64,000 bases of DNA from an uncultured Clostridia bacterium. GTDB taxonomy: Bacteria > Bacillota > Clostridia > Oscillospirales > Acutalibacteraceae. How positions within the stretch are numbered: position 1 is the first letter of the stretch; every line of letters begins with the position of its first letter. The position numbers and the translations under genes were made by a program. Where the stretch lies: assembly GCA_944412495.1 (NCBI GenBank), contig CALYBL010000017.1:87441-151440 (forward strand), given 5' to 3'. Under the pieces are notes generated by a model, which saw only the letters and a program-made list of their open reading frames with translations, was not told the DNA's origin and searched no databases. Below are positions 59,106 through 64,000 of the stretch, in pieces.

Positions 59106-59335
59106 TATAAGAAATATCGGTTATATAAAACGGACGCCGCATTTGCTAACGCCATATAAGGCAGTAATTTGAAAACAACATTGAAATACAGCTTATGGGC
59201 GTTGCAAAGGCCAAAAGACAGCGTAGAAGGCAGAAATGCTTTTTATGCTGTCTTTCTTTATGTTCAAAAATGAAATCGCACATTCGTCAAACAAGACCTT
59301 CCTTGCTACAATGTGAGTGAAGGAGGTAAGCGGAT

Positions 59336-59521
59336 ATGCGAAATCAAAAACACTACATAGCGATTGATGAAAGTGAACGGAGAATTATTCTAAATGCTCT
59401 TAATGCGCTGCGGAACAATCTGCTGGCAGAAGGCAGATATACGGACGCAGTAGATGATGTTCTAATCAAAGTAGTCAACGCACCTGTCAAGAAATTCAAA
59501 ATCAGAATCACGGAGGTTTAA
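59336..59521 (+). CDS. Hypothetical small protein (61 aa), mobile-element associated
   Basis: RBS GAAGGAGG. Lies 4 nt upstream of the tnpV-like gene. Confidence 0.5.
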   Translation: MRNQKHYIAIDESERRIILNALNALRNNLLAEGRYTDAVDDVLIKVVNAPVKKFKIRITEV

Positions 59522-59525
59522 GGTT

Positions 59526-59900
59526 ATGAAAAAGACAATATTTGAACAGATGGGTGGCACATACGAACAACAGGGAGATTATCTTATCCCCTGTCTCGCC
59601 CTTCCTGCCAAAGACGTAGTGCCGATAGGATTGTGGGGGCAAAGACACCTTCAATACATTAAACAACATAGAAAAATATTTTATACTAATTTGATTACAA
59701 GTGGTGATTTATATAGCTATCTTGCTGATATTGACGAGTTAGCAAATAGCATCTATGAAAATATGGTACCGCTATATAAATCGTTATACCAAGTTACTGA
59801 AGAACTTAAAAAATCCAATCCTTTTGAATGGGTGCACAGAAACAACGACATTATAGATGTTATTAATGAAATTATATATAATGATGTGATATTCCGATAA
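59526..59900 (+). CDS. tnpV: Transposon-encoded TnpV-family protein
   Basis: MKKTIFEQMGGTYEQQGDYLIPCLALP...WGQRHLQYIKQH...LITSGDLYSYLADIDE closely follows the Tn4451-type TnpV pattern as I recall it. Confidence 0.7.
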   Translation: MKKTIFEQMGGTYEQQGDYLIPCLALPAKDVVPIGLWGQRHLQYIKQHRKIFYTNLITSGDLYSYLADIDELANSIYENMVPLYKSLYQVTEELKKSNPFEWVHRNNDIIDVINEIIYNDVIFR

Positions 59901-59907
59901 ACTAGTA

Positions 59908-59936
59908 AATGGCGAGGTGTTTCACCTCGCCATTTT
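59908..59936. terminator. Bidirectional terminator between tnpV and the six-gene operon
   Basis: AATGGCGAGGTG-loop-CACCTCGCCATT followed by TTTCG. A-rich on the other side. Confidence 0.7.
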
Positions 59937-59946
59937 CGCTTAATAA

Positions 59947-60441
59947 TTAGATTTTCGGAATCATACTCGCGGAATTAGGAGCATTGGCTTGCATATTCCA
60001 GATAGCTATTTTCATCTTTTTAATACGCTTACCATCACCAAAATCAAGCAAATCTTCCCTTTTATAAACATTCAAAAGTTTATTTAACGATCCCAAGTCC
60101 GCAGATGTCATTAAAAACGCTTCTTCCGGATCGATTAGTTTGCAGTATGCCCACAGTTGTCCTAAATCACGCAGAGTTAAACTTGTCTTTTTTGCTTCAA
60201 TAAAAAACAGTTTGAACTCATCTGCCTTCTTTACTATGCCGAGAACATCAATTTGAATATCTACACCGATAGCTTCTTCTTGAATGATACCGTACTTTCT
60301 AAGAACTCTATCCAATCGTTCGCTGTGTGAGTCAACTACGATTATTTCCTCAGCAGATTTGTATTTATCTTTCAGGTATGCTTTAAGCCATAGCTGCATT
60401 GGTGGGTATAAGTCAAATTCTCTCATATCTTTATTCTCCAT
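59947..60441 (-). CDS. Small PD-(D/E)xK-type nuclease-like protein (164 aa)
   Basis: Core ..AIGVDIQIDVLGIVKKADEFKLFFIEAKKTS.. (D-x17-E-x-K), similar to YraN/Hjc/NucS-type minimal nucleases. Overlaps the upstream gene by 11 nt. Confidence 0.5.
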   Translation of the reverse strand: MENKDMREFDLYPPMQLWLKAYLKDKYKSAEEIIVVDSHSERLDRVLRKYGIIQEEAIGVDIQIDVLGIVKKADEFKLFFIEAKKTSLTLRDLGQLWAYCKLIDPEEAFLMTSADLGSLNKLLNVYKREDLLDFGDGKRIKKMKIAIWNMQANAPNSASMIPKI

Positions 60442-61318
60442 ATCCTAAATCTTTGGCTATTTGCTTCCACGAATCATAGTGTTTGCCTCTTATCTCGGAT
60501 GGAATAAAGCCATCATTTTCGCTTGGGTGATGTGGTTTGTTTTTATTTCTTTCGCGGCCTTCCCAATAGAATTTGTGAGTTACTTCTTCAGGTTTTTTCC
60601 CCTCTGATTCAAGACCATCGATTAATTCGGTTGCAAACTGAGCAAGAGCTTCTCTTTTGTGCAGAACAGCAAATCCTATGGGCAAAAATTCATTCGCCCA
60701 TATTTTAATTTGATGTTCTTTTTTCCAAAAATCAGGCTTCCCTTCCTTGAATTTAACAAGATTGCCGTCACGCATATTGGGATGAGCCCAATCTATTGCC
60801 TGTACAGGAATATTAACATCTTTAAGTAAACGACAAACATCGCTAACCAAATACCAATTATGTGGCACTTCTAAGTAAACACGATGCATATAGTTTTTAA
60901 AAAAGTAGTTACTTCTGCGAATGTAACCCGTCACATCAGCAAATCCTTGCAAAAAAGATATCTTCTCATCACGAGTAAAGGAAAAAATTTCTTCATCAAT
61001 TCTAATATTTTCGTGGGATACCGCATTGCCGATATAACGTAAAATTTCTCGCATCATATATTCGTCATTTCTCTTAGTGAAAGAGATAATAGAATAATTA
61101 TCCTGCTGAGTAAAGCTCAATCCTGTGCCGATTAGAGGTTCTAATACTGTGCGAATATCGGTTATACTTGCACGTACATATATTCTAACATCGTTATTAT
61201 TTTCTGTTACCAGTTTTTTATGTGGAATTTCAACAGATATGGTGGTTTCTGATGCACCACGTCTCACTTCTCCATTGCCACAAATCATACCTAAAAGGTA
61301 AGACATCTCTAGATTCAT
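60431..61318 (-). CDS. Double LAGLIDADG-like-motif protein (295 aa), catalytic acids absent
   Basis: Motif 1 YLLGMICGNGEV and motif 2 FLQGFADVTGYI lie ~110 aa apart, as in monomeric LAGLIDADG enzymes. Position-8 residues are Asn and Thr. Confidence 0.5.
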   Translation of the reverse strand: MNLEMSYLLGMICGNGEVRRGASETTISVEIPHKKLVTENNNDVRIYVRASITDIRTVLEPLIGTGLSFTQQDNYSIISFTKRNDEYMMREILRYIGNAVSHENIRIDEEIFSFTRDEKISFLQGFADVTGYIRRSNYFFKNYMHRVYLEVPHNWYLVSDVCRLLKDVNIPVQAIDWAHPNMRDGNLVKFKEGKPDFWKKEHQIKIWANEFLPIGFAVLHKREALAQFATELIDGLESEGKKPEEVTHKFYWEGRERNKNKPHHPSENDGFIPSEIRGKHYDSWKQIAKDLGYGE

Positions 61319-61333
61319 ACAATCACAATCCTT

Positions 61334-61693
61334 TTAATTCAAGCCTATTCTATATCCATTGTTGAATAATTCCCGAATAATTCTATTATCATTAAGACGA
61401 TATAAATACTCGGCCTTATAAACTCTGTTTTTTCCAAATAAGTGTGCTATGTCAGCGGGTGGGGCAACAGGAACATAGAGCCTTAATTCCAGAGCCCATT
61501 TGTTAGCATCTTCTTGTAAAACAATTATTCCCTCGCTATATAATGTGATAGCAGGAGTATGAGTTTGATTATAATCGTTGATAAATTTGGCCATTGTTCC
61601 CGGTTTTGCTTCTGCTTCTATAAAGAAGTCTCCGCCATTCTGCTTAATATCATTTAAAAAGTCTAAAATTCTTTTTAGCATATGATCCTCCAT
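61334..61693 (-). CDS. Hypothetical protein (119 aa), distant paralogue of the 151-aa neighbour
   Basis: Start overlaps the upstream stop by 1 nt. Shares the C-terminal pattern LRLYV...YLYRLNDNRIIRELFNNGYRIG. Confidence 0.55.
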   Translation of the reverse strand: MEDHMLKRILDFLNDIKQNGGDFFIEAEAKPGTMAKFINDYNQTHTPAITLYSEGIIVLQEDANKWALELRLYVPVAPPADIAHLFGKNRVYKAEYLYRLNDNRIIRELFNNGYRIGLN

Positions 61694-62148
61694 TACAAAT
61701 TATATCCCCGATCAAAGTCTGTAAGATTTGCAGGATGTAAGCGTGAGACAATAGCTCGTATGGCTGCAACATTTTGATATTCCCCAAAATGGAAGCCATA
61801 ATCTCTAACAATTTTCTCTACAAACTTGCCTTTATTGATTCTTCTCACATAACTGGTGTTTCCCTCGCCTAAAAAAGGAAGAAGAACAGAAGGACAATTA
61901 TTTATATTGTTAAAATAAATACGAAGTTGATGGCTTCTTTTCATCGAATATCCACCTGTCGTTTCACCTTGAGTTATAGGGTAATATTCTTCATCAGGAA
62001 ATTCTCTTTCGAACATAAACGCTTTTTCTTCTGGAATCTGTGCTTCAATAAGCCCGATTCTTCCAGGGCTACATAAATACCCTAAAATCAAACAAAAGTC
62101 TGCGGTGTTAACCTCTATATCGAGAGCCCTGGATCCTAATAATGCCAT
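61693..62148 (-). CDS. Hypothetical protein (151 aa) with single LAGLIDADG-like motif
   Basis: FCLILGYLCSPGRI resembles motif 1 of the 295-aa protein. C-terminal LRIYF...YVRRINKGKFVEKIVRDYGFHFG. Confidence 0.55.
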   Translation of the reverse strand: MALLGSRALDIEVNTADFCLILGYLCSPGRIGLIEAQIPEEKAFMFEREFPDEEYYPITQGETTGGYSMKRSHQLRIYFNNINNCPSVLLPFLGEGNTSYVRRINKGKFVEKIVRDYGFHFGEYQNVAAIRAIVSRLHPANLTDFDRGYNL

Positions 62149-62153
62149 AACAT

Positions 62154-62927
62154 CTACTCCTTAACAAATATCAAAAGGTATTCATGAACCTTATTGATAC
62201 GGAATTTGTATGGATATCCAAGCGGCCGCATATTATTGTAATCTGCTTGTCTATCCCAAATAATTAGATCGTCGTAAATGAATCCAATTTTTTGTAATGC
62301 TGTAGCTAAATCGCTATGCAAAGGATAAAAATTGCTTTTTTTACGAATATCCATTACATTTACGATACAATAACCACCTTTTTTCAAAACTCTACTAACT
62401 GAAGCAAAAAGGTTTGATAATGTATTTATAAATTCACTATAATTTGCAATATTTCCCACATCGTTGGTCTTATCAGAGTAATTTACAGCATTCTTTTGGT
62501 CGGCACTTCGTTTCATATTGAGAATATCCCAATACGGTGGGGATGTAACACAAATATCGAAGTGATTTGCAGGAAGTGTTTTTAGCACCTCAAAACTATC
62601 ACCGTTAATTATCTGAATTTTATCATCTTTGCCCACACGTTGTTTTGCTATATTACAAAAATCCTCAGATAAATCGATTCCTACAGCTTCGCATCCAAGT
62701 TTTTGTGCAGCAACAGTTGTGGAACCAATACCATTAAAAGGATCTAATACACGCGAATTTGCTTTTGAAAAAGTGCGTATTAGTTTTTCGCACAACGAAA
62801 CCGGGTAGGATGCGGGATGCTTAAATTCTTTCTCTTCTTTTGTTTTCGATAAATCTCGCCAAATGCTAAAAGAATTTTGAAGCCACTCCTTGCCGGTGAG
62901 ATCATTGCATTTTTTAGAGTTGTCCAT
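62154..62927 (-). CDS. DNA methyltransferase (N6-adenine or N4-cytosine), SPPY type
   Basis: 257 aa. HPASYPVSLCEKLIRTFS..VLDPFNGIGSTTVAA (motifs X and I) comes before ICVTSPPYWD (motif IV). This order is reversed relative to the usual PF01555 layout. C-terminal ..IIWDR...HEYLLIFVK. Confidence 0.8.
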   Translation of the reverse strand: MDNSKKCNDLTGKEWLQNSFSIWRDLSKTKEEKEFKHPASYPVSLCEKLIRTFSKANSRVLDPFNGIGSTTVAAQKLGCEAVGIDLSEDFCNIAKQRVGKDDKIQIINGDSFEVLKTLPANHFDICVTSPPYWDILNMKRSADQKNAVNYSDKTNDVGNIANYSEFINTLSNLFASVSRVLKKGGYCIVNVMDIRKKSNFYPLHSDLATALQKIGFIYDDLIIWDRQADYNNMRPLGYPYKFRINKVHEYLLIFVKE

Positions 62928-64000
62928 TGGGTATCCACCTTTTTGATTGAATTCTTTTTACTTCACAATCAATATAATCGGATTCTTTTTTGTTAATACC
63001 GTATGCTTTGTACACTATCTGATTTAATTCCTCTAAACAGTCGAACCATTCTTGACTCATATAATCATTGCTTTCTAATCTGCTAACTAAACTGAGTATA
63101 GAATCAAAATATATTTCTTGTTGATTAGTTGACGGAAGTGGTATTTTTTTTAAGTATTTTGCATCTGTATGCATTGTAAGTTTGGAGTAATTATAACAGT
63201 ATTTGTACAAGAAAAGATTGCACAAGCGAGAATGAAGTATGCCTAATATGTAACGACACATTTTTTCGTCACCGTCCGTGAATACAGTAACTGTCTGCGT
63301 TGCTTCCATATTACCGCCAAAAGCAGCTATTATACCTGCTTCTGCACTATAAATATTTTGAATAAAAACCTTATTACCTGTTGTAGGCACAGTATGATTT
63401 TTATACCCAAATTTACGTATTTCTTTTCCTGCTATCGCATCTTTTGACACAGATTTTCCTCTACCAACATAACCATTACATAAATCAGATAAAGTTTGAT
63501 ATGAGGAAGTTAATTTTTTATAAGTCGAATAATCCTCTGAACAGTTAAAGATTAGAATTTCATCTTTGTAAAATGATTGAGGAATACTGCACATAGATAC
63601 AAAGCGGTTGCTTGACAATTTTTTTAATTTGATTTTATGCTTTCTATCTGCTGCACAATTTTTAACTGTAAGAATAATTTGCTCTCCTCGAACATTCTTG
63701 AAATAAGCGCCGATATCAATAATGGATATAATCGTTTTTTCTTCAAGAATAGTTCTTCGCAACAAGCTATATCCAGCTACGTGTAGAAAGTTTTTTGGAA
63801 TTATGTAAGATACAATACCATCGGTTTTTACAATCTCAAAAGCTCGAATTAATGCTGCCACAAACAGATTGTTGCCAAAATCAGATACTCTACGTCTGAA
63901 AAGATAATCACAGTTTAATTCAATATCACCCAACAAAGGAACATAAGGGGGATTACCTATAACAACATCCGGTTGATCAGCTAATTCAAATTCACTCAAT
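62914..64000 (-). CDS. N6-adenine DNA methyltransferase (Eco57I/TaqI-like gamma type) with C-terminal specificity domain; N-terminus outside window
   Basis: VVIGNPPYVPL (motif IV) lies near the window edge, followed by ~330 aa of a TaqI-like target-recognition region. Overlaps the next gene by 14 nt. Confidence 0.75.
   Translation of the reverse strand, partial: LSEFELADQPDVVIGNPPYVPLLGDIELNCDYLFRRRVSDFGNNLFVAALIRAFEIVKTDGIVSYIIPKNFLHVAGYSLLRRTILEEKTIISIIDIGAYFKNVRGEQIILTVKNCAADRKHKIKLKKLSSNRFVSMCSIPQSFYKDEILIFNCSEDYSTYKKLTSSYQTLSDLCNGYVGRGKSVSKDAIAGKEIRKFGYKNHTVPTTGNKVFIQNIYSAEAGIIAAFGGNMEATQTVTVFTDGDEKMCRYILGILHSRLCNLFLYKYCYNYSKLTMHTDAKYLKKIPLPSTNQQEIYFDSILSLVSRLESNDYMSQEWFDCLEELNQIVYKAYGINKKESDYIDCEVKRIQSKRWIPNGQL

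Follow-up and report, generated by a model that had tools for sequence, protein, structure and literature searches.

What is a protein with the fold of a homing endonuclease, and without its catalytic acids, doing in an operon of DNA methyltransferase genes? The question is raised by one end of a 64,000-nucleotide stretch (hereafter the window) from an uncultured Clostridia bacterium of the Acutalibacteraceae (assembly GCA_944412495.1, contig CALYBL010000017.1, positions 87,441 to 151,440). Here four genes for proteins named after their lengths in amino acids (aa), p151, p119, p295 and p164, lie directly downstream of two methyltransferase (MTase) genes, M1 and M2, on the same strand. An earlier reading, made from the sequence alone, had noticed three LAGLIDADG-like motifs, two in p295 and one in p151, each devoid of the catalytic acid. 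It proposed that p151 and p119 are a split version of p295, that the two sets provide two recognition modules for the two MTases, and that cleavage is left to p164, a PD-(D/E)xK protein. The coordinates and open reading frames (ORFs) it gave for 60431-62148 are correct, and the three motifs are present where it placed them. Our analysis leads to a narrower proposal, in which p295 and p164 together probably represent an undescribed kind of restriction enzyme.

The structure of p295 was predicted by AlphaFold2 (AF2) from 66 homologues, with a predicted local distance difference test score (pLDDT) of 91.5 and a predicted template modelling score (pTM) of 0.91. The first half of the model consists of helix 3-15, strands 16-20 and 24-32, helix 44-63, strands 68-71 and 75-83 and helix 87-96. 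The second half repeats this pattern: helix 116-130, strands 131-134 and 146-151, helix 155-167, strands 174-176 and 202-207 and helix 219-238. Such an order of helices and strands fits the LAGLIDADG fold, to which p295 adds a C-terminal tail and, at residues 177-201, a conserved insertion. Foldseek comparison with the PDB retrieved 56 matches at E<=0.001, the top ones all being double-LAGLIDADG proteins, namely I-AniI, I-DmoI, bI3 maturase, PI-SceI and WhiA (E 2e-6 to 5e-4, probability 1.0). The structural check suggested by the sequence-only reading thus came out in its favour for p295, both motifs of which lie on LAGLIDADG helices in the model.

Active homing endonucleases carry D or E at position 8 of the motif in both helices and reside in introns or inteins. 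The corresponding residues of p295 are N15 in LLGMICGNG (residues 8-16) and T130 in LQGFADVTG (residues 123-131). Both helices of the model (3-15 and 116-130) end exactly at these residues, each being followed by glycine and a strand. Neither position is occupied by D or E in any of 66 close or 32 distant relatives. N and T are present in all or nearly all of the close ones, while the distant ones (22-61% identity) have R, K, N, G or S at position 15 and A, T, G, C, I or N at position 130. Position 8 of the third motif, in p151, is likewise not acidic, so the absence of the acid was correctly noted for all three. D128, which occupies motif position 6, is nearly invariant in p295. p295 does not lie inside introns or inteins; it sits in operons with MTases and p164. 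Judged by its model, p295 is a LAGLIDADG-fold protein without canonical catalytic acids, or, put differently, a single-chain pseudo-dimeric scaffold from which both of the canonical acids for metal binding are gone.

I-DmoI and I-AniI have the closest folds to p295; together with PI-SceI and bI3 maturase they are its best structural matches (E 2e-6 to 7e-5, template modelling score (TM) up to 0.6 on the target). What p295 shares with the single-chain LAGLIDADG enzymes is a pseudo-dimeric saddle, which in those enzymes reads asymmetric DNA. Survival of the fold after loss of catalysis has a parallel in bI3 maturase. WhiA (DUF199; PDB 3hyi, 3hyj and 8dy9; E 2e-4 to 4e-4) is similar to p295 in being a bacterial single-chain double-LAGLIDADG protein without acids at both helix ends. 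Unlike WhiA, p295 matches no helix-turn-helix (HTH) family; it is encoded in restriction-modification (R-M) operons, and in some cases a PD-(D/E)xK domain is joined to it in one chain.

At the level of sequence, no LAGLIDADG family of Pfam and no WhiA chain of the PDB matched p295, and profile searches of PDB chain sequences with p295 and p164 were without match. Pfam, NCBIfam and PADLOC gave no significant family, only weak matches, for p295, p151, p119 and p164. One of these, HEPN pEK499_p136 for p295, was set aside as unsupported. In databases, relatives of p295 are named either "hypothetical protein" or "DOD-type homing endonuclease domain-containing protein". Clustering at 90% identity divides the family into at least 1684 clusters; its profile gave 312 matches among 50%-identity representatives. 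Five representatives (P0307, P0308, P0313, P0332 and P0373; 991-1299 aa) bear a p295-like domain at their C-terminus, their N-terminal 700-1100 residues having no Pfam or PADLOC match.

We wondered which protein could cleave DNA in place of p295. E8, D65, E82 and K84 of p164, which constitute an E...D...ExK signature, do not vary among 39 homologues. YhcG_C PDDEXK was weakly matched by 12 of these 39 family members, and weak matches to Cas4 were obtained as well. p164 can accordingly be described as a putative minimal PD-(D/E)xK nuclease with intact signature. Its association with p295 was followed in a survey of 80 loci, mostly contigs of metagenome-assembled genomes (MAGs), from Bacillota, Bacteroidota, Spirochaetota, Elusimicrobiota, Campylobacterota, Desulfobacterota and other phyla. 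The p164 gene directly follows that of p295 in all 80. Moreover, about 25 representative proteins of 539-557 aa contain a p295-like part and then a p164-like part in one chain, and such natural fusion is a strong sign that both act as one enzyme. Since p295 is devoid of the acids and its obligate partner has an intact site, delegation of cleavage to p164, as suggested by the sequence-only reading, is the most economical interpretation of the invariant signature, the strict linkage and the fusions.

Of the 80 loci, 75 have MTases in the operon. One of the other five (L003, L038, L041, L048 and L074) lies at a contig edge; at the remaining four, none was assigned within the searched span of the operon. 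Wherever both could be seen, there are two MTase domains, of varying class (gamma and beta, C5 and gamma, EcoRI-like and C5) and sometimes fused. The organization characteristic of Type II (IIS-like) R-M systems, MTases encoded beside the nuclease, is thus found here. In the window operon, M1 is an N6-adenine methyltransferase of the gamma class and Eco57I type; it has an NPPY motif and a recognition domain resembling TaqI_C. M2 is a beta-class N6/N4 DNA methyltransferase and, because its motif is SPPY, its product is probably N4-methylcytosine (m4C).

Reduced versions of this organization were observed on mobile elements. A 6.5-kb L. plantarum plasmid (L081; NZ_CP060181.1, 1-6495) encodes a 700-aa double C5 methylase, a p295-like and a p164-like protein, its other genes being rep, DUF536 and a YafQ toxin gene; this plasmid shows the system in a minimal form that occurs in nature. 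In a temperate Lachnospiraceae phage (L082; PV036410.1, 609-4110), p295-like and p164-like proteins accompany a fused EcoRI-like/C5 methylase beside an excisionase. A second phage, PV036447.1, also matches.

We therefore lean, with some confidence, towards an R-M core made of a two-subunit nuclease, p295 and p164, and two MTase activities, to which p151 and p119 are accessories. The LAGLIDADG body of p295 would read an asymmetric DNA site and p164 would cut by means of its E...D...ExK site, M1 (NPPY, N6-methyladenine) and M2 (SPPY, probably m4C) being the two methylase activities. Reading of an asymmetric site by p295 would explain the need for two strand-specific methylases; conversely, asymmetry is inherent in a pseudo-dimeric LAGLIDADG saddle and agrees with two MTase activities being constantly present.

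Two precedents resemble such an enzyme in part. The heterodimeric Type IIS enzymes BtsI and BsrDI recognize an asymmetric site and are accompanied by two methyltransferase activities. In each, recognition belongs to the large subunit, and the small one, of about 160 aa, has no activity by itself; both are of PD-(D/E)xK type, the large subunit being a nickase in its own right (PMC2909958, PMC3017599). The division into a large and a small (~160 aa) subunit and the two MTases recur in p295 and p164, which is a likeness of architecture, a relation in sequence having been neither sought nor seen; the difference is that the large subunit would here be a LAGLIDADG fold without canonical site. The second precedent is man-made: catalytically inactive I-SceI was fused to PvuII in a single chain with an 18-bp target (PMC3258161). 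The proposed design, a dead LAGLIDADG binder with a PD-(D/E)xK cutter, is the same, except that p295 and p164 are natural, occur as two subunits or as a fusion, and are linked to MTases.

Several observations speak against this proposal. Even where the MTases belong to different classes, p295 remains 60-100% identical between systems. Only hairpins of its first domain vary; the second-domain beta-sheet and the 177-201 insertion hardly change at all. So strong a conservation is not expected of a freely diversifying specificity subunit. A polar set conserved throughout the family (D128, R146, N154, H179, K/R200, E201, H202, Q203, K221 and H280) could serve for docking or as an active site of non-canonical type, and not for reading DNA. 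Furthermore, a single PD-(D/E)xK site cuts one strand, and double-strand cleavage thus requires dimerisation or a second site. Finally, passages of a 2012 review on relatives of homing endonucleases present WhiA as a dead LAGLIDADG domain that may give up DNA binding altogether (PMC3384342).

Some of these points would be accommodated by the main rival, in which p295 possesses a non-canonical centre (D128 together with H179, N181, E201 and H202 of the insertion) and, as in BtsI and BsrDI, p295 and p164 each cut one strand. This would supply what a lone PD-(D/E)xK site cannot achieve, a double-strand break. D128, H179, E201, H202, K221 and H280 are kept in relatives down to 22% identity, and the insertion with its neighbouring strands is the most conserved part of p295. 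On the contrary, both canonical metal-ligand positions are never acidic and the insertion matches no known nuclease motif or Pfam family. We regard a second active site as unlikely, if worth keeping in mind.

We turn to p151 and p119. Their profiles, when shallow, align by hhalign with E 0.002; using a diverse p151-family profile, probability reaches 96% and E 2.5e-9 over 91 columns. Proteins at L074, L075 and L077 are intermediates matching hidden Markov models of both. p119 corresponds approximately to p151 minus its first ~14 residues and minus its last two helices. On these profile comparisons, p151 and p119 are paralogues, and the C-terminal pattern that the sequence-only reading saw in both reflects real homology. 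Its claim that the same pattern extends to the second half of p295 did not hold: profile comparisons of p151 or p119 with p295 gave probabilities of 0.2-2.3% and never aligned that half.

The distribution of p151/p119-type genes is irregular. No such gene occurs at 17 of 79 loci. Elsewhere there is one or there are two, placed upstream or downstream and in either order; in L009 and L027, both close relatives, one of the two is missing. On the p295 tree, the state of the small proteins changes at least 32 times versus four for MTase architecture, counts that are descriptive only, related tips sharing labels. Among the genes of the operon, p119 diverges fastest. In a class-wide search the p151 family occurred in 2 of 399 genomes, too few for co-occurrence statistics. 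At 13 loci a p151-like domain is fused to an intact NOV_C PD-(D/E)xK domain, with which p164 is not detectably the same (hhalign E 0.14). In one MAG, an M2-type methylase and a p119-like domain share a single 378-aa ORF (L014:8837-9973), possibly an assembly or frameshift artefact. Matches to KorB for p119 (5 of 22 members, E 0.02) and to tRNA_int_endo for p151 relatives (3 of 52) were set aside as unsupported.

Residues K70, Q74, R76, Y78 and R103, all on strands, are conserved. Combined with the NOV_C fusions, this suggests, as a guess, some role of p151 and p119 in DNA binding or recruitment. They are best described as optional, frequently exchanged accessory modules that are not required for the core system, and are probably DNA-binding or adaptor modules modulating or extending the core enzyme. 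A bolder version, that these hyper-exchangeable proteins are plug-in DNA-reading or adaptor modules by which a constant p295-p164 engine is retargeted or gated, seems to us quite improbable. If true, restriction would be modular here, a new specificity being obtained by exchange of one small gene.

Could p151 and p119 instead form a heterodimeric LAGLIDADG-like module equivalent to p295, so that two modules serve two MTases and both feed p164? The two proteins are paralogues encoded side by side in the window operon, and the N-terminal helix and first strand of p151, the only part to align with the p295 family profile, do so with their p295 counterparts weakly, at 2.3% probability. In addition, DOD/intein proteins lead the sub-threshold list when the p151 model is compared with BFVD (E 0.2-0.4, probability 0.35-0.6, TM on the query 0.39-0.45). 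However, this model (AF2; pLDDT 93, pTM 0.86) finds nothing significant in the PDB by Foldseek (best E 0.25; I-CreI at E 1.7-3.5 and TM 0.25), and LAGLIDADG families of Pfam match none of 52 family members. The model does not show the motif ILGYLCSPG (residues 21-29) to be a LAGLIDADG helix: the helix stops at L25 and C-S-P-G is a loop. It also has an extra helix after strand 1 and lacks one between strands 2 and 3. Look-alike RIY segments are strand in p151 and helix in p295. The third motif of the sequence-only reading is thus unproven as LAGLIDADG-like, with rather less than an even chance of being so, and a p151/p119 pair that is a split p295 finds no significant profile or fold support.

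The distribution of the genes also contradicts a pairing of two recognition modules with the two MTases. No p151-p119 fusion was seen, and many loci keep two MTases with one small protein or none; p295 and p164 stand alone at the 17 loci mentioned above, and likewise on the small plasmid and in a phage. Altogether, we consider an equivalent heterodimer very unlikely.

R-M operons often contain a small regulator beside the R gene. p295 might correspondingly regulate the operon in the manner of WhiA or of a controller protein, leaving p164 alone as the restriction nuclease; passages of the above-mentioned review provide in WhiA the precedent of a dead LAGLIDADG protein acting as regulator (PMC3384342). 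This is contradicted by the natural p295-p164 fusions and by linkage at 80 of 80 loci. Neither was any helix-turn-helix detected in p295, and a nuclease of about 160 aa is too small to read the asymmetric site implied by two MTases. A purely regulatory p295 is in our opinion highly improbable. Least likely of all is that p295 and p164 do not serve host defence and are a selfish module or one of repair type, for instance a nuclease resembling those of homing that hitch-hikes beside MTase genes: LAGLIDADG genes are classically selfish and this pair is spread over phyla, plasmids and phages, but it is always in an MTase operon in the same orientation, never within introns or inteins, and forms a compact M+R unit on small plasmids.

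The six genes run from 59947 to past 64000 and represent one tight operon (Table 1). M1 is seen at full length in L001, a locus that matches at 100% identity and assigns the window to Merdimmobilis hominis An559, and in a relative, L004. Most homologues of p119 have 115 aa and start at the equivalent of M5 (window 61681-61693), and those of p164 mostly have 158-159 aa and start at the equivalent of M6 (60424-60441). The overlaps of p119 and p164 with upstream stops may therefore not reflect true starts.

Table 1. Genes of the operon at the end of the window.
Gene	Position in window	Strand	Assignment
M1 (468 aa in L001)	62914..64000, cut by window end	minus	Pfam Eco57I (4.6e-14) and TaqI_C; NPPY
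M2 (257 aa)	62154..62927	minus	Pfam N6_N4_Mtase (3e-35); PADLOC MTase_II (1.6e-46); SPPY read from translation
p151 (151 aa)	61693..62148	minus	No Pfam/PDB assignment; p119 paralogue
p119 (119 aa)	61334..61693	minus	Shorter p151 paralogue
p295 (295 aa)	60431..61318	minus	Predicted double-LAGLIDADG-fold protein (AF2 and Foldseek); degenerate catalytic positions
p164 (164 aa)	59947..60441	minus	Putative small PD-(D/E)xK protein (invariant signature residues)

GC content is about 35% within the island containing the operon, which is only about 6 kb long (L001 5900-12000), versus about 50% in the flanks. This contrast suggests foreign origin and acquisition of the operon as one horizontally transferred R-M unit. 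At one edge of the island (window 59106-59946), TnpV-like small genes follow sortase B; at the other there is a 224-aa minus-strand ORF (L001 5932-6606). Eight loci (L002-L004, L008, L012, L035, L036 and L047), including the closest relatives of the window operon, have downstream of p164 a gene for a protein of 305-329 aa with N-terminal HARE-HTH domain (PF05066), which is absent from the window itself.

To our knowledge, restriction nucleases have so far come from the PD-(D/E)xK, HNH, GIY-YIG, PLD and half-pipe folds. We found no description of a LAGLIDADG-fold subunit of an R-M system in the literature; in the passages of the 2012 review that concern host proteins, LAGLIDADG is tied only to WhiA and not to restriction enzymes (PMC3384342). 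p151 and p119 add a further uncharacterised family, with a confident p151 model that has no significant fold match. Should our proposal be true, enzymes of this kind might be developed into compact reagents reading asymmetric sites, and the engineered dead-meganuclease fusions would have an equivalent in nature. A dead LAGLIDADG body with a separate PD-(D/E)xK cutter would constitute a new R-M architecture, natural and widespread, in a p295 family that extends over many phyla, plasmids and phages.

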